Under the pieces are notes generated by a model. The model was not told the origin of the DNA. It did no database searches and was given only the letters and a program-made list of their open reading frames with translations. A program made the position numbers and the translations under genes. This document shows, in pieces, positions 1 through 62,220 of a stretch of 64,000 bases of DNA; within the stretch, counting starts at the first letter, position 1; every line of letters begins with the position of its first letter. The stretch comes from Flavobacteriaceae bacterium (lineage in GTDB: Bacteria > Bacteroidota > Bacteroidia > Flavobacteriales > Flavobacteriaceae): contig WUAI01000012.1 in the NCBI GenBank assembly GCA_009827225.1, forward strand, positions 488 to 64,487. The letters are read 5' to 3'.

Positions 1-752
1 CTCACATACTCCTCTTTAGTGCCTGCCAGATGATATTGCATTATTCCATTGGTAATTGTAAATATCGCACCAGCGGCAATCTCTCCATCTTTCTTTGCCA
101 ATAGCAAACGGGAATCATAATCTGGAGCAGATAACATATTTCTGAAATATTCTGAATCAAAATAATAATACTCAGTTGCCTTCACCCGATCCATAGTTTC
201 GCTATATATCTTGACAAATTCCTCCAGTTCTGTATCAAAGTTTGCTGTAGAGACGGTATACCCTTTCTTTTTTCTTAACTGGTTGATCTCGCTCTTGTTG
301 GATTTACGATATTGCTTGCGCTGATCTTCCGGACTAAGCGTCAAATCGATGGATATCGTTCTATTCAACTCCCTAATAGTACCAAGATTTTCCAAAACCA
401 ATTCAGAAGGAATCAACGGATGCAATCTCGAAAAAGCACAAACGACATCTTTTTTGGTCAAAAAGTCGACCAGGGCTTCCTGAAAAGCTATTACGATCGT
501 ACCGGAAATATTGGAAAAGGGCCGATTGCTTATTGGTCCCGGATACCCATACACTGAAGTGCAATCGGTTAGATTAGTATCCTCAATAGGCCTGAACACC
601 AAGGGTATTGCAATAAAATCTTCTCCTCTTTCAAACACGAATAGCTTAGATTTAAAGCTCGTACTTGATGTTTCTGAGATATGATAGGATTGTGTATGAT
701 GGAAATCATATCGATGGGCTCGAAACACAAAAGTATTCCAAAGGTCCTCCAT
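1..752 (-). CDS. FemAB-like / Acetyltransf_6-type transferase; its 3' end lies beyond the window edge
   Basis: The minus-strand frame is open from the ATG (rc of 750-752) to position 3, checked triplet by triplet with no stops. It is absent from the ORF track because it leaves the window. The visible end ...LLLAKKDGEIAAGAIFTITNGIMQYHLAGTKEEYV resembles FemAB/BioF2-like GNAT-fold transferases found in glycan loci. Confidence 0.5.
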   Translation of the reverse strand, partial: MEDLWNTFVFRAHRYDFHHTQSYHISETSSTSFKSKLFVFERGEDFIAIPLVFRPIEDTNLTDCTSVYGYPGPISNRPFSNISGTIVIAFQEALVDFLTKKDVVCAFSRLHPLIPSELVLENLGTIRELNRTISIDLTLSPEDQRKQYRKSNKSEINQLRKKKGYTVSTANFDTELEEFVKIYSETMDRVKATEYYYFDSEYFRNMLSAPDYDSRLLLAKKDGEIAAGAIFTITNGIMQYHLAGTKEEYV

Positions 753-771
753 TAACTCTATTTCCAGGGTT

Positions 772-1821
772 CTATCCATTCAAATCAAAGTTGTTAATTA
801 GGGATGCCATCGCTAATATGTCTTGATCATCATAACGATAGTCTACATGGACAAACAGCAATCCATCTTCCCATTCTTTGTCTTTTTGATCAACTTGATC
901 GGGCCACAAGATAGCGGGATATAGATTATTCTGAACGGCATATGCCTTAAAAGCATCTCGTTTTTCTTTCACTGAAAAATGTAAAGTAAGTCCGAAAGGT
1001 GTTGCACGACCGTCTGCGGTCAAAACTTTGAAAGCATCGTGGTTATTCAAGTTCTTCAACATCAATGAGAGATTTCGCTGTTTACGAGCCAATATAGCTT
1101 CTACGTTTAGTGTAGAGAGTATCTCCATCGCCGTTCGGGGCAAACCTCCTCGGATTTCCGCCATCTCGAAATTCAACTCCGTGGTCAAAAATAGATTTCT
1201 GTAGCTCGACTTATCTTTAGAATTCCCTTCCAAAAAACTGCCTTTTTTTATCATGGCTTCCATTCGATGATTACATAGATCCATGGCTCCGGCAGTAACC
1301 GGTATTTCATTTAATGTGTTGGTTTTTTTGGTGTATACAAATCCTCCCATTGGCATGGGAAGTTCTTTCCGTAAGGAACCAAAGGTAAAATCGGATTCAC
1401 AATCTATAAGGCCTTCAAGATGATGGGTAATATCTTCCACTATGGTAAGTTGTGAAAAATCATCATGTTGAGGCAACGCCATACCGAAGCAAGAATTCAG
1501 CACCAATACAGAAGTTTTAGAGTCTTTTATGTAACCAGAACCGAGCGGACCTTTAAATCCGGGGACACAATCATAAAAATGAATCATGATGGGAAGGGGT
1601 TGAATAAACCTGGAAACATCATGACAGTAATAGGACGGCAGATAGACATCTGTCCATCCAAGGGATTTTATTCCGTGATCCAGTAAATGAAATAATGCCG
1701 CACGACCTGAAGCATAAAAACTGAAGTTCGTACCGTGGAAGAAAGGTGTGTCCGCTGCGTCTAAAAGAAATTCTGAAGGAACGGGAAGATGAAAATCGGA
1801 GCCGTATTCGTGAACCTTCAT
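772..1821 (-). CDS. DegT/DnrJ/EryC1-like PLP-fold aminotransferase-type protein
   Basis: 349-aa ORF. It has FYASGRAALFHLL (like the G-R-x-A-L motif), IVEDITHHL (like IEDxAHA) and FGSLRKELP (candidate PLP lysine). It sits in a sugar-modification context. Confidence 0.45.
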   Translation of the reverse strand: MKVHEYGSDFHLPVPSEFLLDAADTPFFHGTNFSFYASGRAALFHLLDHGIKSLGWTDVYLPSYYCHDVSRFIQPLPIMIHFYDCVPGFKGPLGSGYIKDSKTSVLVLNSCFGMALPQHDDFSQLTIVEDITHHLEGLIDCESDFTFGSLRKELPMPMGGFVYTKKTNTLNEIPVTAGAMDLCNHRMEAMIKKGSFLEGNSKDKSSYRNLFLTTELNFEMAEIRGGLPRTAMEILSTLNVEAILARKQRNLSLMLKNLNNHDAFKVLTADGRATPFGLTLHFSVKEKRDAFKAYAVQNNLYPAILWPDQVDQKDKEWEDGLLFVHVDYRYDDQDILAMASLINNFDLNG

Positions 1822-1824
1822 GAA

Positions 1825-2376
1825 TTAATATCCATTAGCCTTGGCAACTTCTTGAAAATCTGAGGCAGTTATTCCCAATATGATCATATCCCATCGGGTG
1901 TTCTTTCGGAAATAGTAATCTTTTTTGACACCTTCCTGTTTCCAGCCACATTTGTTAATATACAGGCCGAGAGATGCTTCATTGTTGCTGATTATCGTGG
2001 TATCCAATCTATTCAGTCCTAATTCTTCAAATGCATATTTGGCAATGGTCATAACGGTGTCGGTACCATACCCTTTTCCGCGAGAACTGTTTTCCCCCAA
2101 CAACATCCCGTGAAAAGCATTTCCATCCTTCCAGTTGATATCGACTAAATTGGCCACGCCGATAAATCCCTCTTGTTTGGAATGAATGGCAAAGCGCTGG
2201 TTATTGCTATTTAAACTCAAACCTTCAAACCATCTTTGCTGATCCTGCATGCTGGATGGAAAGTGCCATCCGCCCAACATATAGTTGATGGTAGGGTCGT
2301 TAGACCAATCGTGAATTTTTTTCAGATCTTCCTGTTCAATGGCTTTTAAGACAACTTTCTTTCCAACTATGTTCAT
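1825..2376 (-). CDS. GNAT family N-acetyltransferase (RimJ/RimL-like)
   Basis: 183 aa. The acetyl-CoA motif region is SSRGKGYGTDTVMTIAKYAFEELGLNRL. It overlaps the upstream gene by 4 nt. Confidence 0.75.
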   Translation of the reverse strand: MNIVGKKVVLKAIEQEDLKKIHDWSNDPTINYMLGGWHFPSSMQDQQRWFEGLSLNSNNQRFAIHSKQEGFIGVANLVDINWKDGNAFHGMLLGENSSRGKGYGTDTVMTIAKYAFEELGLNRLDTTIISNNEASLGLYINKCGWKQEGVKKDYYFRKNTRWDMIILGITASDFQEVAKANGY

Positions 2377-3017
2377 ACCTTATTTTTGAAATGATTTGCA
2401 TCTAAATTCTTACTCAATCCCAGATCATCGACTTCGTCCACCGTTTGTCCATGAACTATGGTCTTCGACTTGAATAGTACAGATTTCACTGTCAAAAGTA
2501 CTATTTTTAGATCTAGCAGAAACGATTGATGTTCCACATAATACACATCGTTTTTAAATCGTTCGCTAAACAGCATGGTATTTCGTCCTCTTACCTGGGC
2601 CAGCCCGGTAATGCCGGGACGAACCAGATGTCGCTTCTTTTGTTCTTCCGAATATAAGGGCAAATACTCCGGTAGCAAGGGCCGTGGGCCAACAAGGCTC
2701 ATATCTCCTTTTAGTACATTGATTAACTGAGGAAGCTCATCCAGCGATGTTTTTCTCACAATCTTACCGAAGCCGGTTAGCCGATCTGCGTCGGGTAGCA
2801 AAACCCCTTCCGAATCTTTTTTGTTATTCATGGTCCTGAACTTAATGATGGTAAATAATTTCTCATCTTTTCCGGGCCGCAACTGGTAAAAAAAAGGCTT
2901 ACCGGAATTAACCATCAATAGCCCGAGCCAGACCAATATGAATAACGGACTTGCAACTGCCAGGAAAAACAAGGCGAATAGAAAATCGGCTATGGGCTTT
3001 AAAAAGTTACGATACAC
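2373..3017 (-). CDS. Small PglC/WbaP-C-type undecaprenyl-phosphate sugar phosphotransferase (initiating transferase)
   Basis: Hallmark motif DELPQLINVLKGDMSLVGPRP and a single N-terminal hydrophobic helix. The start is GTG at 3017. Confidence 0.85.
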   Translation of the reverse strand: MYRNFLKPIADFLFALFFLAVASPLFILVWLGLLMVNSGKPFFYQLRPGKDEKLFTIIKFRTMNNKKDSEGVLLPDADRLTGFGKIVRKTSLDELPQLINVLKGDMSLVGPRPLLPEYLPLYSEEQKKRHLVRPGITGLAQVRGRNTMLFSERFKNDVYYVEHQSFLLDLKIVLLTVKSVLFKSKTIVHGQTVDEVDDLGLSKNLDANHFKNKV

Positions 3018-4167
3018 CTTTAAGTAGGTTTTGATATTCCTTTAATAACGATTTCCAAATCACGGACTGTTCATAACGATCGGAGATCAATTTACGACAA
3101 AGATCGGGGTTCATTTCAGAGTGTGCATTTTTCAAGGCATTTAACATCGCTAATTTAAGCTGTTCCTCATTCTTCGCTGGTATTATCCATCCATTCTCAC
3201 CCTCCTTAATAATTTCATTACAACCATTAATATTGGAAACTATCGCCGGTAACCCCATAGCTCCGGCCTGCATAACCACATTCGGAAATCCTTCTCGATA
3301 TGATGGAAATACCAGAATATCACTAATAGCGAAATAAGGCCGAACATCCTCTTGAAACCCTACGGCCAGAATCTGTGAATTATTTTCTATTTCTGAAATA
3401 GTACTACTCCGCAATGGATCCAGTGCATGTTCAAAATCACCTAGTATCAATAATTTAGCCTGCTGATTTTCTGCCGAAATCTCTTTAAAAGCAGCAATCA
3501 TCTCGTTGATCCCCTTATCGCCTACTAAACGTCCTACAAAGATAAACACGTAATCATTCGGCTGTATTCCCAATTCCTGTTTGAGCAGGTTTCGTTGTTC
3601 CTGGGAGATTTGAGCAGGATCAAAATGCGCTATATCGATTCCATTGGAGCTGCCGTTGGCGATTATATTCAACTTATTGGAACGGGTAAATTTTTCCTTC
3701 AGAATAAAATCATATAATCCCTTTGAATTTGGATACACCCTAGTCGCAAATCGATACGTCAGTTTCTCGACAAAGTTCAACAGCTTACGTTTCATTCCGG
3801 AAATTTCCATCAAGGGCATTCCGGCTACTGTATGTATACGAATCTTAACTCCAGCCAATTTGGCCGCCATCATTCCTACTATGCCTGCCTTAGGAGTGTG
3901 CGTATGCACTATGGCCGGTTTTTCTCGTCGTATTATTTTATATAACCTCCAAACGGATCTCAAATCTCCAATGGGTGAGATGGTACGAGTCATTTGAAGT
4001 GGAATGATGCGTATGCCTTCCTCAATAGCAACATCATCCAATTCCTTGCCGGAACTCGAAATCCCGATCACCTCGAAGTGAGAACTCATAAACCGATGCT
4101 GTCCCCTGAGAAGAATCTTCAGAGAAGAAGGAACGGTGGTGATTCGGATTAACTTCGGTTTAGACAT
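3007..4167 (-). CDS. Glycosyltransferase family 4
   Basis: E-x7-E region REGFPNVVMQAGAMGLPAIVSN. I prefer the ATG at 4167 (MSKPKLIRITT) over the longer 4185 start. Confidence 0.8.
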   Translation of the reverse strand: MSKPKLIRITTVPSSLKILLRGQHRFMSSHFEVIGISSSGKELDDVAIEEGIRIIPLQMTRTISPIGDLRSVWRLYKIIRREKPAIVHTHTPKAGIVGMMAAKLAGVKIRIHTVAGMPLMEISGMKRKLLNFVEKLTYRFATRVYPNSKGLYDFILKEKFTRSNKLNIIANGSSNGIDIAHFDPAQISQEQRNLLKQELGIQPNDYVFIFVGRLVGDKGINEMIAAFKEISAENQQAKLLILGDFEHALDPLRSSTISEIENNSQILAVGFQEDVRPYFAISDILVFPSYREGFPNVVMQAGAMGLPAIVSNINGCNEIIKEGENGWIIPAKNEEQLKLAMLNALKNAHSEMNPDLCRKLISDRYEQSVIWKSLLKEYQNLLKGVS

Positions 4168-5242
4168 GTTTACGGTATAAGGCAATATGTTTGTCGATCA
4201 TCACGTCCATACTGTATTCATCGGCCCTTTTGGAACCTTTAGAACTAATAGTATCGTAATATTCTTCTGAATCCAATAACTTCTGAACGGCCTCGGCCAG
4301 GGCTCTGTCATTTCCAATCTCAAATAGTACCCCAGCTCCTTCCACTATTTCGCTAAGACCAGGAGCCCTGGTAGCCACGAAAGGCTTGCCACTCGCCAAT
4401 GCTTCAATACTGGATAAAGACAGACCCTCATAATGTGTGGATAATATCACAACATCAGACATCTTTAATAGGTCGGGGACATCCATTCTCACCCCCAGAA
4501 AGTGCACCCTGGCTTCAAGTTGTAATTCTTTAGTCAAGGATTGCACTTGTTCCATGGTGGGCCCTGTACCTACCAGTACCAGATGCACCTGAGCATCCAA
4601 GTGCTGCATCGCACGAATGACAGTCGCTTGATCTTTCTGGTCGGTAAAACTGGAAACCTGTATAATAATTTTAGAACCATCGGGCAATGAAAATTCAGAC
4701 GGATCAATAGGAGATGCTTCTCGAATTGCTTCCACATCAATCCCATTTTGTATGAACTCAAAACGAGAATCAGGCAAATCCAGATGAGCTTTTAGATTAC
4801 TGTCCACTTCAGCAGAAATCGTTATTATAGACTTGTACATTTTATAGAGCTTTCTGTCCATCCTAGAAAGGAACCAATGATCGCGACGCCTGTTGGTGGT
4901 ATTATGTTCTGTAAAAATGAGAGGCGTTTTTATATGGAACCATTTTTTTGCGAATGCTACCCAATATAATGCAGGAAATAAATGCACGTGTACCAGGTCG
5001 TAGGATTTGAGATGTTTTTTTAGCTTAAAAATATGTTTGAAACGATATACAGACCCTTCTCCTAATGAAATAATCTTACAGTCACATCGCTTGCGTAATT
5101 CCGAAACAAAAGGATATTCTTTACCATTAAGCAGTAAGAGATCCATCTCGATTCCCAACTTGCGGTACTTCGGGATCGAATCCAGTAAGAGCTTCTCGGC
5201 ACCTCCGGTAGCCAGGTTATTAATTACCTGAAGTATTCGCAT
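4160..5242 (-). CDS. Glycosyltransferase family 4
   Basis: N-terminus MRILQVINNLATGGAEK and YEGLSLSSIEALASGKPFVAT. I prefer the start at 5242 (MRILQV). Confidence 0.8.
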   Translation of the reverse strand: MRILQVINNLATGGAEKLLLDSIPKYRKLGIEMDLLLLNGKEYPFVSELRKRCDCKIISLGEGSVYRFKHIFKLKKHLKSYDLVHVHLFPALYWVAFAKKWFHIKTPLIFTEHNTTNRRRDHWFLSRMDRKLYKMYKSIITISAEVDSNLKAHLDLPDSRFEFIQNGIDVEAIREASPIDPSEFSLPDGSKIIIQVSSFTDQKDQATVIRAMQHLDAQVHLVLVGTGPTMEQVQSLTKELQLEARVHFLGVRMDVPDLLKMSDVVILSTHYEGLSLSSIEALASGKPFVATRAPGLSEIVEGAGVLFEIGNDRALAEAVQKLLDSEEYYDTISSKGSKRADEYSMDVMIDKHIALYRKHV

Positions 5243-6419
5243 AGCGTGCATTTAAGTAAATAGAACTGCAGTAATAATAAGCCCAGAAGCCGAATATCAA
5301 AAACAGTGGAAAGAACATGTTTTTCTGACGTAACATAATCCCCAGATTTCCTAAAATGAGAGAAAAGGACAGTGCGCCCATTAAGAAGAATAAGAGGCTA
5401 CCTTTCAAAAGAAAGGGGGCTTTCCGGAAACTTCGTATAGGACGATTTCTAAAAAGTTGAAAGGTAAAGATCAACAAGATCAAGTTTTCAACGGATGCCA
5501 GTATGGCCAGAACACCATTTACATCAAAAAACAATGGACGGTATAAAAAAGTAAAAACCTTCAACGGATATGGATAACCTGAAATATCAAGACCCGATGA
5601 GGAATCCGCCTGATTCAAATTTGCTGCCTTTTTGGCTGTATAGCTCTCGATTTCAGTAGTTTCCAAGCTTTCCAATTGGACGAAATCCAAGACGTAATTA
5701 AATATGGATGCGAAAGAAACCACAAAAACAGCCCCGATCAATAACTTTTGATAGCCTTTTAAACGGCCATCCATGGTATATGCCAGTCCAAAGGCGATGA
5801 TTAAAAATAAGGTGATATGCGGTCTGATAGTCAAAGATAGGATCACACTTAGTAATAATGCTATATAACGCTTCTTTACATTGAGTAACGAATAGGTGAA
5901 CATAGCAATACACAAAAATAGCACGGTATCTTTCCCTATACCTGAAGACCAGAAATGCAGGTTCGGCAAGAACCAAATCCAAGGGAATAAAGGAATTCCA
6001 AATAATTTAAAGTTCTTGAACACATTGATATCCGTGAATAGTATTTTGCTAATTCTATAATAATAGACAAAGCCCAAATAACCTAATAACGCATATATTA
6101 AATTACCCGTGAGAAAGGATAGATCCAGAATATGTGCGAAAAAATAATTTAAGAGATAGATCGTACCGGAGGCAGATCCCCGGTCTATGACGTCCATGAC
6201 AGCGCTTAATTCATTATTCTTCGGGAAGTTCCAATATACGATAGCATCACCACCTCCTTGTGCAACAATAAAACTAAATACAATTGCAACAAAGAAATGA
6301 TACGCAAAAAGTCTATCCAGAAATCTCTTATCAGATTTATCAAAAGAGAAACCCGCATTCTTTAGATTGAATCCAACGATGATTACTATAATACAAACAC
6401 ATATATCCAATATAATCAT
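5220..6419 (-). CDS. Wzy/EpsG-like polysaccharide polymerase (polytopic membrane protein)
   Basis: 399 aa with about 10 hydrophobic helices and no soluble domain. It lies between GTs in a locus that also has Wzx. Confidence 0.55.
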   Translation of the reverse strand: MIILDICVCIIVIIVGFNLKNAGFSFDKSDKRFLDRLFAYHFFVAIVFSFIVAQGGGDAIVYWNFPKNNELSAVMDVIDRGSASGTIYLLNYFFAHILDLSFLTGNLIYALLGYLGFVYYYRISKILFTDINVFKNFKLFGIPLFPWIWFLPNLHFWSSGIGKDTVLFLCIAMFTYSLLNVKKRYIALLLSVILSLTIRPHITLFLIIAFGLAYTMDGRLKGYQKLLIGAVFVVSFASIFNYVLDFVQLESLETTEIESYTAKKAANLNQADSSSGLDISGYPYPLKVFTFLYRPLFFDVNGVLAILASVENLILLIFTFQLFRNRPIRSFRKAPFLLKGSLLFFLMGALSFSLILGNLGIMLRQKNMFFPLFLIFGFWAYYYCSSIYLNARYANTSGN

Positions 6420-7297
6420 AGGGTAGAATGCTCTTTAAAAAACCGATTCAATTCCGCCTTAAGATCAGGAGACAGTTTCATTTCGAAAGCATCTTCCTTA
6501 CTAGTCGCACGAAAAATCCATTGTTTAAATGTATTACTAAATAACCGTGAAAAATAATCTTTCAAGCCCATCTTTTTCAGAACATAAAACAGTCGGCCAT
6601 ATTTTGGCTTTCTAGCCACATTTTTATGAACTAAAGTTTCTTGTTCAAAATCTGATATGTCTAAATAACTAGCAAGAGATTCTAATGTGGTCTTAGGTTG
6701 GTCCTTCAAGTCCTCCAAATGGATCACTATCACTTTAGAAAATTCTTTTTTAAAAGACTCAATCGATGCCTTGTAAGAACTCATCCCCAAATAGGAATGC
6801 CAGGGCAAGGCATGTAATTTGCTCTGAGTAATTTCGTCTTGCAAACAAGACTCAAAAGTTTTATTTATTCGTCCTTTACCTACATCCATTTTATAATGAG
6901 AAAAGGCTCGCTTCAAAGGATCGCGAAGCAGCACAACTATAGTAGCATCCGGGTTATAGGCTTTGATCCGTGAAGCTACCCCGGGAGCAGAAAGATAAGC
7001 CGTACTTGAGTCCAAACGATACTTTTGCTCTCCGGCAAGCGAGTAAGCCAGTTCATATTGAGATTCTGTGTTGATATTTGTGATATGTAATGGCTCCGGA
7101 AAATTCTTTTCAAAGTACTGTTCCAGATCAAAAAAACGGGAGGGTTCGTATAAATTTACAGGCAATTCGTCCACAAAATAGTGTGGCTCCTTAATAGGTG
7201 AAGCATAAATTTCTTCATGCTGAGACAATAATTCGGAGAAGGAAGTAGTGCCTGCTTTCATTGCTCCTACAAGAAATAAATTTACACGCTGCCCCAT
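6416..7297 (-). CDS. Sulfotransferase (Sulfotransfer_1-like)
   Basis: 5'-PSB-like motif LVGAMKAGTTS and 3'-PB-like motif RDPLKRAFSHY. Confidence 0.8.
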   Translation of the reverse strand: MGQRVNLFLVGAMKAGTTSFSELLSQHEEIYASPIKEPHYFVDELPVNLYEPSRFFDLEQYFEKNFPEPLHITNINTESQYELAYSLAGEQKYRLDSSTAYLSAPGVASRIKAYNPDATIVVLLRDPLKRAFSHYKMDVGKGRINKTFESCLQDEITQSKLHALPWHSYLGMSSYKASIESFKKEFSKVIVIHLEDLKDQPKTTLESLASYLDISDFEQETLVHKNVARKPKYGRLFYVLKKMGLKDYFSRLFSNTFKQWIFRATSKEDAFEMKLSPDLKAELNRFFKEHSTL

Positions 7298-8214
7298 CCC
7301 TGTCCTTTCATTTTTTTGTAGAATCCGTATACGGGAATCACGGTGAACAAATCCAGTAAAAAAGACTTAAAACTTCCCATTAAAATTTGAATTTTCTTTT
7401 TAATTCCACGACGTTTCTCTTGCGTATACTGCTGTTTATTTTGCAGGTAGGCCAGGAAAACGAATCTTTGATAATATTTTTTAAAATAGTGGGAATCAGT
7501 TCCCGTCAGTTTCGATTTAACCTCTATCAGTGTGTCCAGATATTGAGAAAAATCATCTGCCGAATATAATTTTTGTGAAGCAGAATCCTCGGTAGTTTTG
7601 CGATAGAATGAAAGGTTTTTGTTGGTACAAACGATATCTTGATCCATACACAGCCGTAACCATAAATCGTGGTCTTCATGCCTTCTTTGACCTGGTCTGA
7701 AGTAACCATTGCGGTCAAACAATGATTTGCGAATCACCGCATTGGAAGAATTGATCAAGGGTAAGTATTTTTGAATAATCTGGTAATGATTTACTATTCC
7801 CGTCGCTCCGTCAGTTGGTAAAAAAGGATTCGCATACCGTTCCAGCTGTTGTTTAAATACCCGACATCTGCCTGTCGCGAAAATGGATTCGTTCGGAAAT
7901 TGCTGAATCGCTAGGAAAATTTCAGCAAGAAACTTAGTGTCCCACCAATCGTCTGCATCCAGGAAAGCAATCCATGGGTAGGAAGCCGCTTTAATACCTT
8001 TATTCCTGGCCACGCTCACACCCGAATTTGGAATGGAAATCACTTTCAACCGAGAGTCATTGAAGTGTTCGTCGATCAAGGCTAGTGACCTGTCGGTACT
8101 GCTATCGTTAATCACAACTAATTCAAGATCCTTAAACTCTTGATTCAATACCGATCGAATGGTCTCGACGATGTATAGTTCTTTATTGAATAAAGGAATG
8201 ACCACCGAAAACAT
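7282..8214 (-). CDS. Glycosyltransferase family 2
   Basis: FSVVIPLFN, VINDSSTDRS and LDADDWW (DxD) motifs. Confidence 0.85.
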   Translation of the reverse strand: MFSVVIPLFNKELYIVETIRSVLNQEFKDLELVVINDSSTDRSLALIDEHFNDSRLKVISIPNSGVSVARNKGIKAASYPWIAFLDADDWWDTKFLAEIFLAIQQFPNESIFATGRCRVFKQQLERYANPFLPTDGATGIVNHYQIIQKYLPLINSSNAVIRKSLFDRNGYFRPGQRRHEDHDLWLRLCMDQDIVCTNKNLSFYRKTTEDSASQKLYSADDFSQYLDTLIEVKSKLTGTDSHYFKKYYQRFVFLAYLQNKQQYTQEKRRGIKKKIQILMGSFKSFLLDLFTVIPVYGFYKKMKGQGWGSV

Positions 8215-8216
8215 GA

Positions 8217-9089
8217 TTACAGCACTTTAGAGATTAATTTAATCATTCTGAAGTAAAACTTATCGAAAAAAGTGAGATGAGTCAACACTGTTTTCTGATT
8301 TTTTATTTCAATGGTCCCCAATTGAGATCGCATCGGATTCCCGCCGATCGCATGGTTTTTTTGAAGTTGAAGGTTGGTAGTAGGAATTGATTCATCTAGA
8401 AAGACAGATAATTCCTCCAATGTATTTTCCGGGTGTTTACAAAAGGACTTATATTTTATCTCCATATATGGAACCCTAACCACAAGGTAATTAGCCATCT
8501 TCTTTATTTTCAACCATGTCTTCGCAATAACCCAGTTCCCCTTCACAGGCATCCAAACTTCTCTCGTTGTATATTCCGGGAGCATTACTTTCTTTTTCCA
8601 ACTATTTGCCACTGCCAACACATCCCTTTCAAGGTGAATCATGCGGATATCGAAAACTCCCAGTTCCAGCAGTAAATAGGCCCAAGGAACACTTTTCGAA
8701 CTGTCAATAATTACATTCTTACCTGTGATTTCGGCTATAGAGGCATAAAAATAAACCACAATCTTCCCGAATGTTTTCCACTCTTCCGATTGCAGTAGTT
8801 TTGGAATCTGCTTAAAATTTCTAAAAAACTGAATCTCTCTTACCTTCTGGACAAACTGAGCGATCTCATAATCTGGAAATTTCGTCTGAAGTCGACTTTG
8901 AATCTGGCTCCACAGTGAACATTCGGTAACGATATTGGAACAACCACAATGAGAGGCTCCTTCCGAATATCGAATCCAAAAACGATGACACTCCCCTACC
9001 GAAATCGAGTTTTCAATATTTGATAGCACAGAATCTAACAAAGTAGAACCCGATCGACCATCCCCTGCTATGTAAATAATCTTAATCAC
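8217..9089 (-). CDS. Sulfotransferase (Stf0/Sulfotransfer_3-like P-loop type)
   Basis: N-terminal IIYIAGDGRSGSTLL PAPS-binding loop. GTG start at 9089. It sits in the same operon as the PAPS synthesis genes. Confidence 0.7.
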   Translation of the reverse strand: MIKIIYIAGDGRSGSTLLDSVLSNIENSISVGECHRFWIRYSEGASHCGCSNIVTECSLWSQIQSRLQTKFPDYEIAQFVQKVREIQFFRNFKQIPKLLQSEEWKTFGKIVVYFYASIAEITGKNVIIDSSKSVPWAYLLLELGVFDIRMIHLERDVLAVANSWKKKVMLPEYTTREVWMPVKGNWVIAKTWLKIKKMANYLVVRVPYMEIKYKSFCKHPENTLEELSVFLDESIPTTNLQLQKNHAIGGNPMRSQLGTIEIKNQKTVLTHLTFFDKFYFRMIKLISKVL

Positions 9090-10412
9090 TTAAATAATCG
9101 CTGTATTGATATTGAGATGTTTCCGAACATATTTTAGCAAGATAATATTCTGAAGGATCAGTGTGGTGCTTATGACAATGGCAGCCCCCGTAACATCGAG
9201 ATAAATTACCATAGGTACACTCAAAATCAATAGAATGAGAAGCATTTGTAAATTGCTGTTGCTAAATACTTTCTGGTTGCCGGTCATACTCAATAATAAG
9301 CCAACGGATCCGGCCATGCTACTTACCAATTGACCGATACACATTATAACTAACGGTATGTAGGAGGCATCGTATTCGCTTCCAAACACCCATTGAACCA
9401 GTTCTTTTCCTCCAAAAATGAATACAAGTCCAACGGGTAATGAGAAAAAGAATATGAGCCGTCCGGTTTTCCTAATGATCCGTTGTAAATACTCCATATT
9501 CTTCTTTTCGAAAGCGGTGGATACAAAAGGTGAAATGGCCGAGTTCAAAGCATTAAGCGTAAATGCTACCAAATTTGCTCCTCTCATGGCCACATCAAAG
9601 ATGGCCACTGCTTCCACCGATCCGAACGCCACCAAAACGTAGTTTAACAACTTGGATCGAACCACCTGTATTCCACTGTTAATAGAAAAAGGGATGGTTT
9701 GTTTGATCCATTCTTTATTGCTGAATTGCGCTCTGATAGCACGTAATCCCCTAAGCAGTTTGCGATTCAGAAATATGAAACCCAGTAAAAAGCTTAGTCC
9801 GGTGGCTATAATCTGAAAAATAATGGCCACTTTCGGATTTAAAGGAAATTCCAAAATTACAGCTCCCATTAACATGCATGTGAACCAAAAATTTCGTAAT
9901 AAAGTGTCTGGTAATTCTGCCAGAATAACAAACTTCATACCTCTAAGAGCAGAGGCCCGCAATGCACTCAATCCAAGTAAAGGCAACAGTAAAAAGCCAT
10001 AGAGCATAGTTTCAACTATCACGGAATCATATTTATTCCACCAAAAGAAATAACTGGCGAATGCCACCGCGTAGATGATCAAGGTTGAATACACAACAAA
10101 GGCGTTGGACTTAATCAACAAGCCTTTGATAAGCGCAAAATCTTCACTTATGGCGTATTTGGAAATGTATCGGGTGAGCAAATTAGGAAGCCCCATGGTC
10201 GCAGGTACGGCAAGTATAGTCATGGTAGTAAAAACGAGCACGTAATACCCTAAATCGGCAACAGACATATATCGGGCTAGCAATACGGCATTCAGAAATG
10301 CAAAAAACGCCGATCCAAACTTTATAATAACACTGCCCGCCGAAGCAGATCTAATATCTTTCTTAGATAAAAAGTTGAATAGTTTGGACAATTTTCTATG
10401 ATTTGAAGTCAA
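9090..10412 (-). CDS. Wzx-type polysaccharide flippase (MOP superfamily)
   Basis: 440 aa with about 12 TM helices and a typical Wzx length and position. The TTG start lies directly after the stop of the upstream gene. Confidence 0.75.
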   Translation of the reverse strand: MTSNHRKLSKLFNFLSKKDIRSASAGSVIIKFGSAFFAFLNAVLLARYMSVADLGYYVLVFTTMTILAVPATMGLPNLLTRYISKYAISEDFALIKGLLIKSNAFVVYSTLIIYAVAFASYFFWWNKYDSVIVETMLYGFLLLPLLGLSALRASALRGMKFVILAELPDTLLRNFWFTCMLMGAVILEFPLNPKVAIIFQIIATGLSFLLGFIFLNRKLLRGLRAIRAQFSNKEWIKQTIPFSINSGIQVVRSKLLNYVLVAFGSVEAVAIFDVAMRGANLVAFTLNALNSAISPFVSTAFEKKNMEYLQRIIRKTGRLIFFFSLPVGLVFIFGGKELVQWVFGSEYDASYIPLVIMCIGQLVSSMAGSVGLLLSMTGNQKVFSNSNLQMLLILLILSVPMVIYLDVTGAAIVISTTLILQNIILLKYVRKHLNINTAII

Positions 10413-10982
10413 TTACCTTTGAAGTAAATGAGCTTTCTCTTTCATTTCTTTTAGTGACCAATCCCACCACTGAAGTTGATCCTGAGCCTTCATTTCTTCT
10501 TCAGAAAACCGAAATTTAATAAACTTGGCCGGTACACCTGCCATAATCGCATAATCAGGCACATTTTTGGTTACCACTGCACCAGCGGCTATAATGGCAT
10601 TATTACCAATAGTAACACCTGGTAGAATAATAGCTCGATCTCCAATCCAAACATTATGCCCGACGGTTACATTGTTTCTTTCATCCACCCTGGCTTCTAA
10701 ACCAATTCTTTTCAGCAATGCGTATTGTAAAATGATGTCGTCGACCTTATGATTGGAAGTTATAATCCTAATATCATCTCCAAGGGCGCAATACTTACCA
10801 AAGGTGCAATCGCCGCGGCCTTTGATGGTAATTTTTCCGTTGATGCGAGTGCCATCACCAAATACAGTTCCGTTTACAATTCGGGACCCTTTGCCGATAA
10901 GAATACCACTTGTATCTTTTAAATCTCTGAATTTTAAAAGAAAACGATACCAGGTGGCGTTTTTACCGGAAAATGTCAGCAT
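10413..10982 (-). CDS. Hexapeptide-repeat O-acetyltransferase (Vat/CatB-like left-handed beta-helix)
   Basis: VTVGHNVWIGDRAIILPGVTIGNNAIIAAGAVV hexapeptide repeats. Confidence 0.8.
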   Translation of the reverse strand: MLTFSGKNATWYRFLLKFRDLKDTSGILIGKGSRIVNGTVFGDGTRINGKITIKGRGDCTFGKYCALGDDIRIITSNHKVDDIILQYALLKRIGLEARVDERNNVTVGHNVWIGDRAIILPGVTIGNNAIIAAGAVVTKNVPDYAIMAGVPAKFIKFRFSEEEMKAQDQLQWWDWSLKEMKEKAHLLQR

Positions 10983-10985
10983 AAT

Positions 10986-12242
10986 TTAGAGTATCATTCC
11001 AGCGGCAACTGTTTCGTGAGATGCATCATCAATTAAAACAAAGCTACCGGTAATTCGGTTATCCCTATATTCATCGATCATCAAAGGACGAGTGGTTCTT
11101 ATTTTGATACGCGCAATGTCGTTCATATTAAGATCCTTATTTTCTTCGTCTCGACTGTAAGTATTGATATCAATTTTATACAGAATATCCTTGATCATTG
11201 CCTTCTGCTCATTGGACGTATGCAAAATGGTGTATTTCGCGCGGGGCCTGGCAGCTGAATTGTTCAACCAACACAACATAGCATCAAACTCCTGGGTAGG
11301 CGTAGGTTTGTTGTTCGTTTTTACAATCATATCCCCACGACTTATATCGATATCGTCCTCAAGCGTTATTGAAACCGACATAGGCGCATAAGCCTCATCC
11401 ATAGGGCCTTCAATAGTATCCACCGATTTGATCACGGAGGTAAACCCTGATGGCATAATCGTAACATCATCACCAGGTCGGAAGATCCCACTGGCTACAC
11501 GTCCTGCATACCCGCGGTAATCCACAAATTCCTTGCTCTGAGGTCGTAATACAGTTTGCACCGGAAAACGAGCATCGATTTTGTTTAAATCACTACTAAT
11601 ATGCATATGTTCCAAAGTATGCAACAAAGGGGCACCCTGGTACCATCCCATGTTTTCGGATCGATTTACCACATTATCACCATTTAACGCACTAATGGGA
11701 AGGAATCGAATGTCTTTTACATACAGCTTGGATGAAAACTCTTCGAACTGGGCAATTATATTTTCATAAACCTCCTCTTTGTAGTCCACCAAATCCATTT
11801 TATTGACACATACAATGATATGTGGAATCTGAAGCAGAGAAGCTATAAACGCATGGCGTTTTGTTTGTTCAATGACACCGTTTCGAGCATCTATCAGGAT
11901 GAGGGCCGCGTTTGCTGTGGAAGCTCCGGTGACCATGTTCCTGGTATATTGAATATGCCCTGGCGTATCAGCAATAATGAATTTACGCTTTGGGGTAGTA
12001 AAATAACGATAGGCCACGTCAATAGTAATCCCCTGCTCTCTTTCATCCCGCAGTCCATCGGTGAAAAGAGCCAGGTCTACACCATCATGACCTTTTCTTT
12101 TACTGGTGGTTTCTACGGCCTCCAATTGATCTTCAAAAATCGCTTTGCTATCGTACAACAAACGACCGATAAGTGTACTTTTTCCGTCGTCCACACTACC
12201 GGCGGTTGTAAATCGTAATAATTGATTATTATCTATTTGCAT
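10986..12242 (-). CDS. cysN: Sulfate adenylyltransferase subunit 1
   Basis: GTPase motifs GSVDDGKST, DTPGH and NKMD. I prefer the start at ATG 12242 (MQIDNNQLLRFTT) because the 12314 start would overlap cysD by 59 nt. Confidence 0.9.
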   Translation of the reverse strand: MQIDNNQLLRFTTAGSVDDGKSTLIGRLLYDSKAIFEDQLEAVETTSKRKGHDGVDLALFTDGLRDEREQGITIDVAYRYFTTPKRKFIIADTPGHIQYTRNMVTGASTANAALILIDARNGVIEQTKRHAFIASLLQIPHIIVCVNKMDLVDYKEEVYENIIAQFEEFSSKLYVKDIRFLPISALNGDNVVNRSENMGWYQGAPLLHTLEHMHISSDLNKIDARFPVQTVLRPQSKEFVDYRGYAGRVASGIFRPGDDVTIMPSGFTSVIKSVDTIEGPMDEAYAPMSVSITLEDDIDISRGDMIVKTNNKPTPTQEFDAMLCWLNNSAARPRAKYTILHTSNEQKAMIKDILYKIDINTYSRDEENKDLNMNDIARIKIRTTRPLMIDEYRDNRITGSFVLIDDASHETVAAGMIL

Positions 12243-12255
12243 TTTTTCTGAAATA

Positions 12256-13161
12256 TTAGAAGTAACCTTGTCGTTTTCTATCCTCCATAGAGGTCTCACT
12301 TCGTTTGTCATCACTACGGTTACCTCGTTCGGTCTGTTTCATGGAGCTTACCTCCTGCACAATTTTTTCCAATGAGTCTGCATCCGATTCAATCCCACCG
12401 GTGATGGTAATATCACCAAGGGTTCTGAAGCGAATCTTTTTTGAATGAATCTCTTCTCCATCCTCCAGTTTAAGATATTCTGACACCGGGATCCAGGAGT
12501 CGTTTCTCCATACTACTTCCCGTTGATGTGCATAATACAAGGAAGGAATACTGATATTTTCACGGAGTATGTAATTCCACACATCCATTTCGGTCCAGTT
12601 ACTGATTGGGAACGCACGGAAATGTTCTCCTTCAAAATGCTTTCCGTTAAGTATGTTCCATAGTTCGGGTCTTTGATTTTTTGGATCCCATTGTCCAAAA
12701 TCGTCCCGGTGCGAGAAGAAACGTTCTTTAGCACGTGCCTTTTCCTCATCCCTTCTTCCGCCACCAATAGCGCAATCCACATTATGAGTTTCAATAGCGT
12801 CCAGCAAAGTGGTGATCTGAAGTGCATTCCGTGTTGCATTTTTTCCACGTTCTTCGGCCACTCTCCCCGTATCGATGGATTCCTGAACGGAACCTACGAT
12901 TAGCTGTGCTCCAAGGTCTGCAATAAGATCGTCCCTGAATTTAATAGTCTCCGGAAAATTGTGCCCCGTATCCACATGCATCAAAGGGAAAGGTATCTTG
13001 GAAGGATAAAATGCCTTTTTGGCTAAATGAGTAACAAGTATAGAATCTTTACCTCCCGAGAATAGAATAACGGGGTTCTCGAACTGAGCCCATACTTCCC
13101 TGAGGATATAAATGGCTTCGGATTCTAATTCATCCAAATAGTTTAAATAATACTTACTCAT
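12256..13161 (-). CDS. cysD: Sulfate adenylyltransferase subunit 2
   Basis: PP-loop ILFSGGKDS. The length (301 aa) and C-terminus are typical of CysD. Confidence 0.92.
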   Translation of the reverse strand: MSKYYLNYLDELESEAIYILREVWAQFENPVILFSGGKDSILVTHLAKKAFYPSKIPFPLMHVDTGHNFPETIKFRDDLIADLGAQLIVGSVQESIDTGRVAEERGKNATRNALQITTLLDAIETHNVDCAIGGGRRDEEKARAKERFFSHRDDFGQWDPKNQRPELWNILNGKHFEGEHFRAFPISNWTEMDVWNYILRENISIPSLYYAHQREVVWRNDSWIPVSEYLKLEDGEEIHSKKIRFRTLGDITITGGIESDADSLEKIVQEVSSMKQTERGNRSDDKRSETSMEDRKRQGYF

Positions 13162-13756
13162 TATCTAATTGTAATTTACTTTTTACTTTTTCAAATATTA
13201 TTTCGACTGCCTCTTCAACCGAGGTTGAAGTAGTATCAATTTCGCAATCGGGATTCACAGGGGCCTCATAGGGAGCATTAATCCCGGTAAAATTTTTGAT
13301 CTCACCTGCCCTGGCCTTCGCATAAAGGCCCTTCACATCTCGACGTTCGCACTCTTCCAGGGGAGTATTAACAAATATCTCCACATAATTTTCAGGTCCA
13401 ACTATGTTGCTAATATCTTCCCGGTCTTTTTGGTAAGGGGAAACAAAAGCACCTAAAACTACCAATCCCGCATCGACCATCAAATTGGCAACTTCGGCAA
13501 TTCGTCTGATGTTCTCCGTGCGATCTTCAGGGGAAAATCCCAGATTTTTATTGAGGCCCTTTCGTACATTATCCCCATCAAGCGCATAGGTGTGAATATT
13601 CTTTTCCGCAAGATGTTTTTCAAACGCATTTGCAATGGTCGACTTACCAGACCCGGATAGGCCTGTAAACCATACCAAAAAAGCACCATGTCCTTTGAGC
13701 CCGGTGCGTTCCGCTTTGCCAATGCTAAAATTATGTGGGATGACGTTATCCTGCAT
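13154..13756 (-). CDS. cysC: Adenylyl-sulfate (APS) kinase
   Basis: P-loop GLSGSGKST and the LDGDNVR motif, 200 aa. Confidence 0.92.
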   Translation of the reverse strand: MQDNVIPHNFSIGKAERTGLKGHGAFLVWFTGLSGSGKSTIANAFEKHLAEKNIHTYALDGDNVRKGLNKNLGFSPEDRTENIRRIAEVANLMVDAGLVVLGAFVSPYQKDREDISNIVGPENYVEIFVNTPLEECERRDVKGLYAKARAGEIKNFTGINAPYEAPVNPDCEIDTTSTSVEEAVEIIFEKVKSKLQLDNE

Positions 13757-14217
13757 TATCGGTTAAGTATCTTCTTGTACACAAAGTTTCGGATTCGTCC
13801 TAATGGCAGACGGAGCCAGATGCGTTCGTGTAAATAATAAAGTGCAAATTTAGTAAATAGCTCGGTTAAAGCTATAAAAAGAGCGATTTCGGTAAAACTC
13901 TCTAAAATGGCCCCTGAAATAAGGAATGTCATGGTGGTGGCCACGATTCTCCAGGACAGAGTTTTATAGAGGGTTCGTTTCTTGGATACTTCTTTCCCCG
14001 CATGATACTTTTGCCAGATTCTTTCATGCACGTAGTACACTGCGAATTTGAGAACAAATTCGATTCCGCCTATCTTCAGGGCATTTTCTAAACTACAATT
14101 ACCAAACAAACAGGTAATAGCCAAAGCTACGACCACCGTATCCGTAGTAGCAACAATACGCCAGGAGATCCCTTTTAAGAGACTTCGTATGTGAGATTCC
14201 TGTTTGTAAACGGCCAT
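13756..14217 (-). CDS. DUF2061-type membrane protein, internally duplicated
   Basis: Two copies of SWRIVATT...KFA(V/L)YY(V/L)HERIW. Its stop overlaps the cysC start (TAATG). Confidence 0.6.
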   Translation of the reverse strand: MAVYKQESHIRSLLKGISWRIVATTDTVVVALAITCLFGNCSLENALKIGGIEFVLKFAVYYVHERIWQKYHAGKEVSKKRTLYKTLSWRIVATTMTFLISGAILESFTEIALFIALTELFTKFALYYLHERIWLRLPLGRIRNFVYKKILNR

Positions 14218-14218
14218 C

Positions 14219-15007
14219 TTATGCAGTTACTAAAAAGTAGGGATTCAATAAGTTCTCCTTATTGTATTGCAATGGTTTCTGGGTATTTTGATCAATCACT
14301 GAAACGCCACTCGCATTGCAAATAGCGTGACCAGCTGCAGTATCCCACTCCATGGTAGGTGCAAATCTTGGATATACATGCGCATTGCCTTCGGCCACCA
14401 GGCAAAATTTTAAGGAACTTCCCCTGGATACGATCTCAACCTGTTGGTCCTTTTCGATTTCAGCAATGAAATTCCGGGTATCATCATTGAGATGAGAGCG
14501 ACTCCCAACAACCTTCACTGGTTCACTCTTTTCAGCAGGTGCAAGTACCTCAGCACCAGACAGTATTTGATCCATCGAGTAATTGTCTTCATCTATCTCG
14601 ATTTTTCTGGCCTGATCGGCATCAGCATTGGTAAAATATAAAGTTCTTGAAACCGGTACATAAATAACTCCAAGTACAGGGTTTCCATTTTTAACTAAAG
14701 CAATGTTTACCGTGAACTCCCCATTTCTTTTCACAAATTCTTTGGTTCCGTCCAGTGGATCCACAATCCAGCAACTTTGCCATTGGCTGCGTTCAGAAAA
14801 CTCAATTTGCTTGTTTTCTTCACTTATAATAGGAACATCGGTAGTGAGAAGGTAAGTATTGATTACATCATTGGCATTTCGATCGGCCAATGTAAGCGGA
14901 GAATTATCTCCTTTTATTTCTACATCGAAGTCGGTGGCATAAATCTTCATTATCTCTTTTCCACCTTCAATAGCAGCTTTTATCGCAGTCTCTAAATAAG
15001 ATTTCAT
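14219..15007 (-). CDS. cysQ: 3'(2'),5'-bisphosphate nucleotidase (PAP phosphatase)
   Basis: WIVDPLDGT and WDTAAG motifs. I prefer the start at ATG 15007 (MKSYLETAIKAA) because a -7 box lies inside the longer ORF. Confidence 0.85.
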   Translation of the reverse strand: MKSYLETAIKAAIEGGKEIMKIYATDFDVEIKGDNSPLTLADRNANDVINTYLLTTDVPIISEENKQIEFSERSQWQSCWIVDPLDGTKEFVKRNGEFTVNIALVKNGNPVLGVIYVPVSRTLYFTNADADQARKIEIDEDNYSMDQILSGAEVLAPAEKSEPVKVVGSRSHLNDDTRNFIAEIEKDQQVEIVSRGSSLKFCLVAEGNAHVYPRFAPTMEWDTAAGHAICNASGVSVIDQNTQKPLQYNKENLLNPYFLVTA

Positions 15008-15026
15008 GGGGGTGACGTTAGGTGCG

Positions 15027-15034
15027 CAAATGTA
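15027..15034 (-). promoter_or_regulatory. Candidate Bacteroidota -7 box (TACATTTG) for the cysQ-to-FemAB-like operon
   Basis: The reverse complement of CAAATGTA matches TAnnTTTG. It lies 19 nt upstream of the cysQ ATG at 15007. Confidence 0.3.
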
Positions 15035-15148
15035 CAATATTTCCATAAAGAACAGAATTTTTTAATCGCTCATTGCTAAGAAATCCGTGTTTAATTATGG
15101 CCTGAAATTTGCTTCCAACAGATTCATAAACAATTGTAAATTTGTGTT

Positions 15149-19707: not shown

Positions 19708-19761
19708 AACGGTTGACTAACGCTAAAATTTAGTAATTTGGTAATCCAATTTGTATCCAAG

Positions 19762-60584: not shown

Positions 60585-60585
60585 T

Positions 60586-62217: not shown

Positions 62218-62220
62218 TAT

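Follow-up and report, generated by a model that had tools for sequence, protein, structure and literature searches.

What does a bacterium build when the genes that make and recycle the sulfate donor 3'-phosphoadenosine 5'-phosphosulfate (PAPS) stand at the head of a Wzx/Wzy-type polysaccharide gene block? The question is raised by a stretch of DNA of 64,000 nucleotides from a Flavobacteriaceae bacterium (assembly GCA_009827225.1, contig WUAI01000012.1, positions 488 to 64,487 of the forward strand; this whole stretch is called the window hereafter), the first 15 kb of which carry such a block on the minus strand. The block belongs to a marine bacterium of this family that stands close to Aequorivita, Patiriisocius, Ulvibacter, and Aureisphaera. 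Our answer, which we hold with fair confidence, is that this is a Wzx/Wzy capsule or exopolysaccharide operon of about 23 genes and about 23 kb with its own sulfate donor supply, and that its product is predicted to be sulfated. A preliminary description of the same DNA had distinguished a sulfate-handling and a glycan-assembly gene set in one locus; both are real, and they are fused in one tight co-directional block. Every enzyme belongs to a recognised family, with the exception of a Wzy-like protein and two accessory proteins; the genes are packed in a single direction, and the locus is conserved across genera.

The sulfate-handling set heads the block and consists of five genes:

14219..15007, minus strand: cysQ, 3'(2'),5'-bisphosphate nucleotidase, a phosphatase of 3'-phosphoadenosine 5'-phosphate (PAP) (TIGR01331, 267.5 bits against a cut-off of 228.8; Inositol_P, 156.8 bits)
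13756..14217, minus strand: small membrane protein of the DUF2061 family, containing two internal repeats (PF09834, 111.6 bits over two stretches)
13154..13756, minus strand: cysC, kinase of adenosine 5'-phosphosulfate (APS) (APS_kinase, 224 bits; TIGR00455, 249.1 against 138.7 bits)
12256..13161, minus strand: cysD, ATP sulfurylase small subunit (TIGR02039, 413 against 396.6 bits; NF003587, 442 bits)
10986..12314, minus strand: cysN, ATP sulfurylase GTPase subunit (TIGR02034, 549.2 against 336.1 bits)

The four cys genes all score above curated NCBIfam cut-offs, in agreement with their earlier reading as a sulfate activation and PAP phosphatase set, and every motif quoted for the sulfate-handling proteins, DPLDGT and WDTAAG of CysQ included, was found again. 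CysD is 90-92% identical to the copies of Aequorivita, Patiriisocius, Ulvibacter, and Aureisphaera, the top match in the species-representative genome set reaching 92% (Aequorivita soesokkakensis and Patiriisocius hiemis). The true start of cysN is probably the ATG at 12242, giving a protein of 418 amino acids (aa), which we prefer because the homologs are 418 aa long.

Downstream of cysN, two sulfotransferase genes (called ST1 and ST2 here) lie among the genes for glycan assembly:

10413..10982, minus strand: hexapeptide-repeat acetyltransferase, probably a sugar O-acetyltransferase (Hexapep, 46.4 bits; top NCBIfam matches of the Vat, CatB, and WbbJ types)
9090..10412, minus strand: Wzx-type flippase (Polysacc_synt, 33.5 against 28.2 bits; Polysacc_synt_3, 23.6 against 23 bits; about 10 hydrophobic segments)
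8217..9089, minus strand: ST2, cytoplasmic PAPS-dependent sulfotransferase of a divergent Sulfotransfer_3 subfamily (assigned by homologs, profile, and predicted fold)
7282..8214, minus strand: GT2 glycosyltransferase (Glycos_transf_2, 112.4 bits)
6416..7297, minus strand: ST1, cytoplasmic PAPS-dependent carbohydrate-type sulfotransferase (Sulfotransfer_3, 51.9 against 27 bits; Sulfotransfer_1, 39.4 against 22 bits)
5220..6419, minus strand: polytopic membrane protein of 399 aa, putative Wzy (assigned by position and elimination)
4160..5251, minus strand: GT4 glycosyltransferase (Glycos_transf_1, 114.6 bits; Glyco_transf_4, 82.6 bits)
3007..4185, minus strand: GT4 glycosyltransferase (Glycos_transf_1, 117.9 bits)
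2373..3017, minus strand: small PglC-like initiating enzyme, a polyprenyl-phosphate sugar-1-phosphate transferase (Bac_transf, 198.7 bits over 214 aa)
1825..2376, minus strand: GNAT N-acetyltransferase, PseH-like (Acetyltransf_3, 73.7 bits; TIGR03585, 75.7 bits, below its equivalog cut-off of 93.1)
772..1821, minus strand: 349-aa protein of unknown family, between sugar-modifying genes
1..779, minus strand: FemAB-like (Acetyltransf_6) protein, first 259 of 346 codons, cut at the window edge

ST1 is the clearer case of the two sulfotransferases. A comparison with PDB sequences links it to 3RNL, a bacterial sulfotransferase (5.9e-26), and to the heparan sulfate glucosamine 3-O-sulfotransferases (about 1e-5), and it carries the motifs GAMKAGTTS at residue 11 (the Lys-containing 5'-phosphosulfate loop), KEPHYF, and RDPLKRAFSHY at residue 125 (the RD...S 3'-phosphate motif). 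The second of these is aligned to KEAHFF in 3RNL, a position that we take to correspond to the segment with the catalytic Glu and His in heparan sulfate O-sulfotransferases. Its reading frame overlaps that of the GT2 by 16 nt and that of the Wzy-like gene by 4 nt, and more than 100 distinct close relatives were found, mostly in marine Flavobacteriaceae. ST2 is more divergent: the earlier call of two sulfotransferases holds on family hidden Markov models (HMMs) for ST1, which is above the Pfam cut-offs, and fails on them for ST2, which is nevertheless recognised by profile, fold, and invariant residues. Many of its full-length homologs, at 45-58% identity, carry PF13469 and PF00685; in an alignment of 31 sequences, G9, G11-R12-S13-G14-S15, R155, and S163 are invariant, i.e., the two PAPS-binding elements; and the family profile matches the sulfotransferase domains of olefin synthase (OLS, 4GOX, 1.8e-15) and CurM (4GBM, 5.6e-12), as well as tyrosylprotein sulfotransferase (TPST) and SULT1A1. 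The AlphaFold2 (AF2) model of ST2 (mean predicted local distance difference test score, pLDDT, of 93.2) retrieved only sulfotransferases with Foldseek at E <= 1e-3 (17 of 17 matches), with modest TM-scores of 0.39-0.53. No signal peptide and no membrane or hydrophobic segment was found in ST1 or ST2; this, together with a PAPS loop that starts within the first 15 residues, indicates that both are cytoplasmic. From their sequences, both are credible PAPS-dependent enzymes. The same 31-sequence alignment also shows that the ST2 subfamily has invariant C48, C50, and C57 along with G32-E33, in a GEC...CGC...C pattern which, to our knowledge, is not a usual sulfotransferase feature; these cysteines could form a metal site or a disulfide.

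Does the presence of PAPS genes and sulfotransferases necessarily point to the glycan? One has to keep in mind that, in the same phylum, the cluster BT_0411-BT_0416 of Bacteroides thetaiotaomicron also has PAPS genes beside a PAPS-dependent sulfotransferase, and that this enzyme, BT_0416, makes cholesterol sulfate, an activity shown both biochemically and genetically (PMC9417993). On this model, the acceptor of ST1 and ST2 would be a membrane lipid, a secreted small molecule, or a protein, and the glycan would carry no sulfate; the closest solved relatives of ST2, which are the CurM and olefin-synthase domains and the tyrosylprotein sulfotransferases, fit with it. The Bacteroides cluster differs from ours in having cholesterol as acceptor, a sulfate importer (BT_0412), and neither glycosyltransferases nor Wzx/Wzy (PMC9417993); instead of an importer with a stand-alone sulfotransferase, the window has its sulfotransferases interleaved with wzx, a glycosyltransferase gene, and the Wzy-like gene, the reading frames overlapping or abutting. 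Furthermore, the GT2-ST1-Wzy-like triad is kept across genera, the PDB relatives of ST1 beyond 3RNL are heparan sulfate glucosamine O-sulfotransferases, and in Altibacter and an uncultured relative, pyruvyl transferases, whose products are also anionic decorations of glycans, are encoded in the variable part of the locus. A non-glycan acceptor is, with these observations, highly improbable.

A second question is whether the PAPS genes belong to the glycan genes at all. Seventeen open reading frames (ORFs) occupy positions 1-15046 of the window, 16 of them complete and one cut by the left window edge, and at all 16 junctions there is either an overlap or a gap of at most 3 nt. Where the two sets meet, 3 nt separate cysN from the acetyltransferase gene and 0 nt separate the latter from wzx, on the same strand throughout; PAPS genes and sulfotransferases are, thus, enclosed in one polysaccharide block, the combination that marks the sulfated-polysaccharide clusters of Vibrio and Cobetia considered below. 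The preliminary description had all 17 ORFs close-packed on the minus strand, as they are; it also allowed gaps of up to about 19 nt, and here the packing and the overlaps stand while the measured gaps are smaller. The TAATG overlap which it placed at 13756 does exist, at 13758-13754, where the stop codon of the DUF2061 gene meets the start codon of cysC. With the start of cysN moved to its 25th codon, the cysD-cysN gap becomes 13 nt. We infer from this spacing that the whole block is transcribed as one message.

The alternative to a dedicated supply is that cysQ-DUF2061-cysC-cysD-cysN is a general, possibly the sole, sulfate-activation module of the cell that merely lies beside a capsule locus. 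Its PAPS would go to cysteine synthesis, by way of a PAPS reductase gene at another site, or to several unrelated sulfations, in which case the glycan could still be sulfated. To weigh this, one can look at a survey of Bacteroidota made of 80 loci anchored on the closest CysD relatives, where no genome appears twice and none comes from the species of the window; the sulfotransferase counts in it come from custom-built HMMs and are a lower bound. Most of the 80 loci have the same five- or four-gene block (cysC beside cysD in 68, cysQ in 60), and about four-fifths have no sulfotransferase detected within 10 kb at this lower-bound sensitivity, as one would expect of a general module; the PAPS enzymes are also far more conserved among relatives (66-92% identity) than the glycan genes (36-56%), suggesting different evolutionary constraints. 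On the other hand, no terminator-sized gap or strand change separates cysN from the glycan genes, and the block heads a capsule operon in at least six genera. Elsewhere in the Bacteroidota, polysaccharide genes are the commonest neighbours of the module (GDP-mannose dehydratase/epimerase family in 34 loci, Wzx in 18, UDP-glucose dehydrogenase in 16, DegT in 15, RmlA in 14, RmlC in 12), an SLC13-type transporter is present in 16 of the 80, and in at least 15 an ORF resembling a sulfotransferase follows cysN on its strand. Neither cysH nor a sulfite reductase occurs among the neighbour families scanned in the 80 loci, and where a cysDN pair has no cysC, the genes on either side are unrelated ones rather than cysH or sir.

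The window itself gives a similar picture: an assimilatory sulfate reduction operon would link cysH and a sulfite reductase to cysDN, and searches across the 64 kb found neither gene, as the preliminary description had said. In Kordia, another member of the Flavobacteriaceae, the assimilatory cluster is cysND-cysH-sir without cysC, and Kordia antarctica has cysC with a second cysND copy elsewhere (PMC7477175); such a separate cysC-less set for assimilation speaks against a general module. From the co-location and by analogy with Kordia, we infer that the PAPS genes mainly serve sulfation; the earlier suggestion that PAPS is made here for sulfation rather than for assimilation is, thus, favoured, short of proof, and a general module merely adjoining a capsule locus seems unlikely to us.

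In the same survey, the DUF2061 gene, which sits between cysQ and cysC in the window, could be placed in a broader context. The family is uncharacterised, being mentioned in only six papers, and in Flavobacteriaceae it is a conserved component of the PAPS genes. It lies directly upstream of cysC in 24 of 79 CysD-anchored loci, mostly from Flavobacteriaceae, and in 10 of the 79, mostly from Cytophagales, the same place is taken by an SLC13-type transporter (CitMHS/Na_sulph_symp with TrkA_C). Within 6 kb of cysD, DUF2061 is present in 25 loci and the SLC13-type transporter in 14, never both (Fisher p = 0.0035, uncorrected for phylogeny). No SLC13 or other sulfate transporter was recognised in our locus, the corresponding slot being held by DUF2061; this family may, thus, be tied to sulfate activation, e.g., to sulfate entry. 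Small genes of another kind, encoding PF05635 (23S rRNA intervening-sequence) proteins, are inserted in the sulfate-activation module in about 10 Bacteroidota loci, for instance in the cysC/cysD or the cysD/cysN interval (loci L006, L007, L008, L044, L045, L053, L055, L060, and L066).

If the glycan is sulfated, which glycan is it? The window holds only the promoter-proximal 15 kb of the locus. The 17,280-nt Logan contig L083 (run SRR8117323) is 100% identical to window positions 1-9175 and runs 8.1 kb beyond the left window edge, so that the locus does not end at base 1; the contig completes the FemAB-like protein (346 aa; L083 8397-9437) and adds five genes, which brings the complete locus to about 23 genes over about 23 kb:

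L083, within 9441-17145: DegT-family aminotransferase (closest to LegC and PseC, below their cut-offs)
L083, within 9441-17145: PglF/PseB-like dehydratase, 626 aa (Polysacc_synt_2)
L083, within 9441-17145: Wza, 251 aa (Poly_export/SLBB)
L083, within 9441-17145: Wzc tyrosine autokinase, 793 aa (GNVR and AAA_31; TIGR01007, 122.6 against 108 bits)
L083, within 9441-17145: Wzi, 447 aa (Caps_assemb_Wzi)

In other bacteria, Wzx/Wzy loci with a PglC-like enzyme and bacillosamine-type genes also serve O-antigen synthesis and protein glycosylation, and such a gene content could also suit a sulfated O-antigen of the lipopolysaccharide, or the glycan of the general protein O-glycosylation of Bacteroidota, in place of a capsule. 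Wza, the Wzc tyrosine autokinase, and Wzi, which are group-1-type capsule proteins, nevertheless lie directly downstream in the same orientation and provide the export and surface-assembly set of a group-1-type capsule; a sulfated glycan other than a capsule or exopolysaccharide is, therefore, improbable in our view.

The sulfated capsule or exopolysaccharide that we favour would then be made as follows. CysD and CysN would adenylate sulfate to APS, which CysC would phosphorylate to PAPS. The PglC-like transferase would start the repeat unit on undecaprenyl phosphate, with an N-acylated 4-amino-4,6-dideoxy-hexosamine produced by the PglF-like dehydratase, the DegT aminotransferase, and the acyltransferases as the starting sugar, and the GT2 and the two GT4 enzymes would lengthen it, probably to a tetrasaccharide. 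The soluble ST1 and ST2 would sulfate the lipid-linked unit and the hexapeptide acetyltransferase would acetylate it, on the cytoplasmic face of the membrane because only that compartment holds PAPS, while CysQ would hydrolyse the inhibitory by-product PAP to AMP. Wzx would move the sulfated unit across the membrane, the Wzy-like protein would polymerise the flipped unit, Wzc and Wza would export the polymer, and Wzi would hold it at the cell surface. In this scheme, the sulfate on the product, as well as the substrate and the position of each sulfation, are predictions from gene content.

Several of these assignments deserve a word. The Wzx flippase, the PglC-like initiating transferase (which has one N-terminal hydrophobic segment), and the three glycosyltransferases (one GT2 and two GT4) of the preliminary description are all supported by family scores, and its acetyltransferase among the glycan genes is confirmed as such by the Hexapep match. 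CysE, which would suggest cysteine synthesis, was considered for the latter protein and rejected (34.7 bits for the cysE model against a cut-off of 210). For the 349-aa protein encoded at 772-1821, no significant match was found in Pfam, NCBIfam, or PDB sequences; together with its GNAT and FemAB-like neighbours, it points to an uncommon N-acyl substituent, which may be an aminoacyl one, on the amino sugar that starts the unit.

Assigning the polymerase was not an easy task. The protein encoded at 5220-6419 had been labelled "Wzy/EpsG-like", a label for which neither family nor fold gives support: it has no Pfam or NCBIfam match even at E = 5 and, although its family counts 2020 representative homologs at E <= 1e-3, none of 66 diverse ones matches a Wzy, EpsG, or O-antigen-ligase model (two match PMT_2). 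The AF2 model is all-helical, with a pLDDT of 94.1; Foldseek gave no significant PDB match with it (ArnT at a probability of 0.66 and WaaL at 0.47, with E-values of 0.5-0.65), and the family profile matched nothing among PDB sequences. EpsG-like as a family label is, thus, ruled out by the Pfam, homolog, PDB-profile, and Foldseek comparisons. D58, K163, and R364 are invariant in the family, and R199-P200-H201 and R294 nearly so; the gene stands beside ST1 in every related locus and is the sole polymerase candidate of the locus. We, therefore, keep it as a putative Wzy polymerase by position, conservation, and elimination.

Conservation across genera is the other main support for a coherent locus. 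In Ulvibacter sp. MAR_2010_11, Altibacter lentus, and Aureisphaera galaxeae, the order is cysQ-DUF2061-cysC-cysD-cysN-wzx-(variable)-GT2-ST1-Wzy-like-GT4-GT4-initiating transferase, and the loci go on with PglD, DegT, and a PglF-like dehydratase; Wza and Wzc then follow in Ulvibacter and Altibacter, and would lie beyond the compared stretch in Aureisphaera. The same parts are present in a very widely sampled uncultured flavobacterium, where wzx follows ST1, and the PAPS genes and the ST1/Wzy-like core of the window recur in Aequorivita soesokkakensis and Marinirhabdus gelatinilytica. The GT2 gene adjoins ST1 in loci L001, L002, L005, L084, and L085. Identity to these relatives is 36-75% for DUF2061 and mostly 36-63% for the glycan genes with a counterpart. 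Two parts of the locus vary: the GNAT/349-aa/FemAB-like trio is specific to the window, the relatives having a PglD-type acetyltransferase after the initiating transferase, and the position after wzx is occupied by ST2 in the window and Aureisphaera, by a different sulfotransferase in Ulvibacter, and by pyruvyl transferases in Altibacter. Such polysaccharide pyruvyl transferases were seen in the variable part of Altibacter lentus (locus L002, 5719-9082) and of the uncultured flavobacterium (L085, 15046-16017), where they would provide a further anionic decoration, alongside or replacing a second sulfotransferase. The G+C content of 0.37-0.39 over window positions 6001-10000 (ST1-GT2-ST2-wzx), against 0.40-0.45 elsewhere in the window, fits with a more exchangeable, serotype-like central region.

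Some points weigh against a sulfated capsule and have to be set beside this evidence. The only biochemically characterised Bacteroidota cluster of PAPS genes and sulfotransferase that we found sulfates a steroid (PMC9417993). The Sulfotransfer_3 score of ST2 itself, 24.9 bits, lies under the cut-off of 27, and the acceptors of its nearest relatives of known structure are acyl-carrier-bound lipids and protein tyrosine rather than sugars. The polymerase, as said, is assigned although its family and fold comparisons gave no support, and the single message is deduced from gene spacing and nothing else. The block could, moreover, be the only cysDN(C) set of the genome and also feed assimilation via a PAPS reductase encoded elsewhere. 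Finally, no published sulfated-glycan structure was found for any carrier of the locus or any relative.

How new would such a locus be? The list of genetically defined sulfated bacterial glycans given in the preliminary description was short, and it is out of date: the structures of sulfated capsules have been solved for Vibrio sp. KMM 8419 and Cobetia marina KMM 1449, and the Vibrio authors regard PAPS genes together with sulfotransferases as a hallmark of sulfated polysaccharide synthesis (PMC11641403, PMC11766843). As in the window, cysD, cysN, cysC, and sulfotransferase genes lie inside a polysaccharide cluster in both strains, with cysQ too in Cobetia. These are, however, Gammaproteobacteria with an ABC-transporter (Kps) type of assembly and clusters of 70-80 genes in several regions and orientations; Cobetia also has a fused cysN/cysC and a sulfate permease, whereas the window has a separate cysC and no recognisable sulfate transporter. 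The locus described here, known from its genes alone, instead combines Wzx/Wzy with Wza, Wzc, and Wzi in one co-directional block that includes DUF2061.

Closer in its assembly pathway is the xss cluster for synechan in Synechocystis sp. PCC 6803, which is of the Wzx/Wzy type with two sulfotransferases of different subfamilies; it has been examined by genetics, and the proposed model has the lipid-linked repeat unit sulfated in the cytoplasm (PMC8205485). It differs in being cyanobacterial and plasmid-borne, with its outer-membrane exporter encoded elsewhere in the genome, and in the sections of the paper considered, PAPS synthesis or cysQ genes are not listed as part of the cluster; its authors stated in 2021 that sulfotransferases were unknown in other bacterial exopolysaccharide clusters (PMC8205485). 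Sulfated glycosaminoglycan-like exopolymers are also reported for Pontiella (Kiritimatiellae). In the rhizobial NodPQ/NodH system and with KpsS of Mesorhizobium loti, the PAPS for a carbohydrate sulfotransferase (Sulfotransfer_3 type) comes from a second set of sulfate-activation genes that is dedicated to this use. Those systems belong to Alphaproteobacteria, have lipo-chitooligosaccharide or K-antigen acceptors from a different pathway, and are not fused into a Wzx/Wzy operon. NodH and KpsS are both mentioned in PMC11625862.

The statement that no characterised Wzx/Wzy sulfated-glycan locus was known in Flavobacteriia agrees with full-text searches outside subscription-only papers, which found no sulfated-glycan or sulfotransferase locus for this class and nothing that links cysQ and cysC with polysaccharide in Bacteroidetes. 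The elements of the locus are, thus, all known, and what is new is a Wzx/Wzy capsule pathway with a full PAPS cycle heading one co-directional block, the DUF2061 gene within it, and a phylum that is new for such glycans. A specialist aware of the Vibrio and Cobetia work would not be surprised by the locus, yet it is clade-wide. More tentatively, one may ask whether sulfated capsules are a common, chromosomally fixed trait of a clade of marine Flavobacteriaceae, which may comprise Ulvibacter, Altibacter, Aureisphaera, Aequorivita, Marinirhabdus, and abundant uncultured relatives, or, more loosely, of many Bacteroidota, with DUF2061 as a functional part of the sulfate-activation module; the bacteria best known as degraders of sulfated algal glycans would then be an unrecognised marine source of sulfated polysaccharide themselves. 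We hold this broader proposition to be less likely than not.

Few sulfated bacterial polysaccharides have been worked out genetically, and this compact locus would bring donor synthesis, recycling, assembly, sulfation, and export together in one co-directional block. If the prediction is correct, one more phylum joins the known producers of sulfated glycans, and one has to ask how sulfatase-rich bacteria cope with a sulfated surface of their own. The glycan sulfotransferases would also gain two new families whose genomic partners are defined, which is useful for the microbial production of sulfated polysaccharides. DUF2061 gains a first functional neighbourhood, as does a large family of putative polymerases for which Pfam gave no match. 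As several cultured marine flavobacteria keep most of the locus, the prediction can be tested with existing strains.

The right-hand boundary of the block can be placed in the 15.0-15.15 kb intergenic region, given that a divergent plus-strand gene starts at 15149. The length of the CysQ homologs (260-263 aa) and the alignment of upstream regions set the true cysQ start at 15007, the ATG already used in the preliminary description and the start conserved in relatives; the longest cysQ ORF, from 15046, takes in the promoter. A general sigma-70 scan found 32 promoter-like sites against 42.4 in shuffled sequence and is uninformative for Bacteroidota, for which reason a comparative alignment of the regions upstream of cysQ was used. 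It shows TTGTAC(A/C)TTTG at the equivalent position in the window, Aureisphaera, Ulvibacter, and Altibacter, and GTTAACTTTG at the position of this block in the uncultured relative. Within the conserved block lies TAnnTTTG, the -7 element of Bacteroidetes promoters, which gives one more, probable feature:

15027..15034, minus strand: probable promoter -7 box TACATTTG, which precedes the cysQ start codon at 15007 by about 20 nt (its function being deduced from conservation)

The terminator-like matches of a terminator scan fall inside genes, and an Rfam search over the whole window found no RNA family and, upstream of cysQ, no riboswitch or leader.

The locus is adjoined by a phytase-like protein gene (15149-16009, plus strand) and by a gene for a 1233-aa protein (16006-19707, minus strand) with an N-terminal calcineurin-like phosphoesterase and weak C-terminal ShlB/Omp85-like matches. 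The latter flank gene, of about 1233 aa and of the Metallophos/Omp85-like kind, is kept in Ulvibacter and Aureisphaera, and the phytase-like one in Aureisphaera, so that the capsule locus appears to occupy a fixed chromosomal position.

Two further regions of the window may be mentioned. PycTM is the membrane effector domain of Pycsar anti-phage systems, and a 403-aa protein encoded at 19738-20949 (plus strand) combines an N-terminal HD phosphohydrolase with a C-terminal PycTM (Pfam, 128.4 bits; PADLOC PycTM, 1.6e-16); none of the three neighbours scanned matches a PADLOC model, and no cyclase was seen adjoining it. Last, three genes in a row at 58644-64000 (plus strand) encode a maltosyltransferase of the GlgE type, a protein resembling maltokinases (weak matches), and a GlgB branching enzyme; from their sequences, they represent a GlgE alpha-glucan pathway, best known from actinobacteria, in a flavobacterium.

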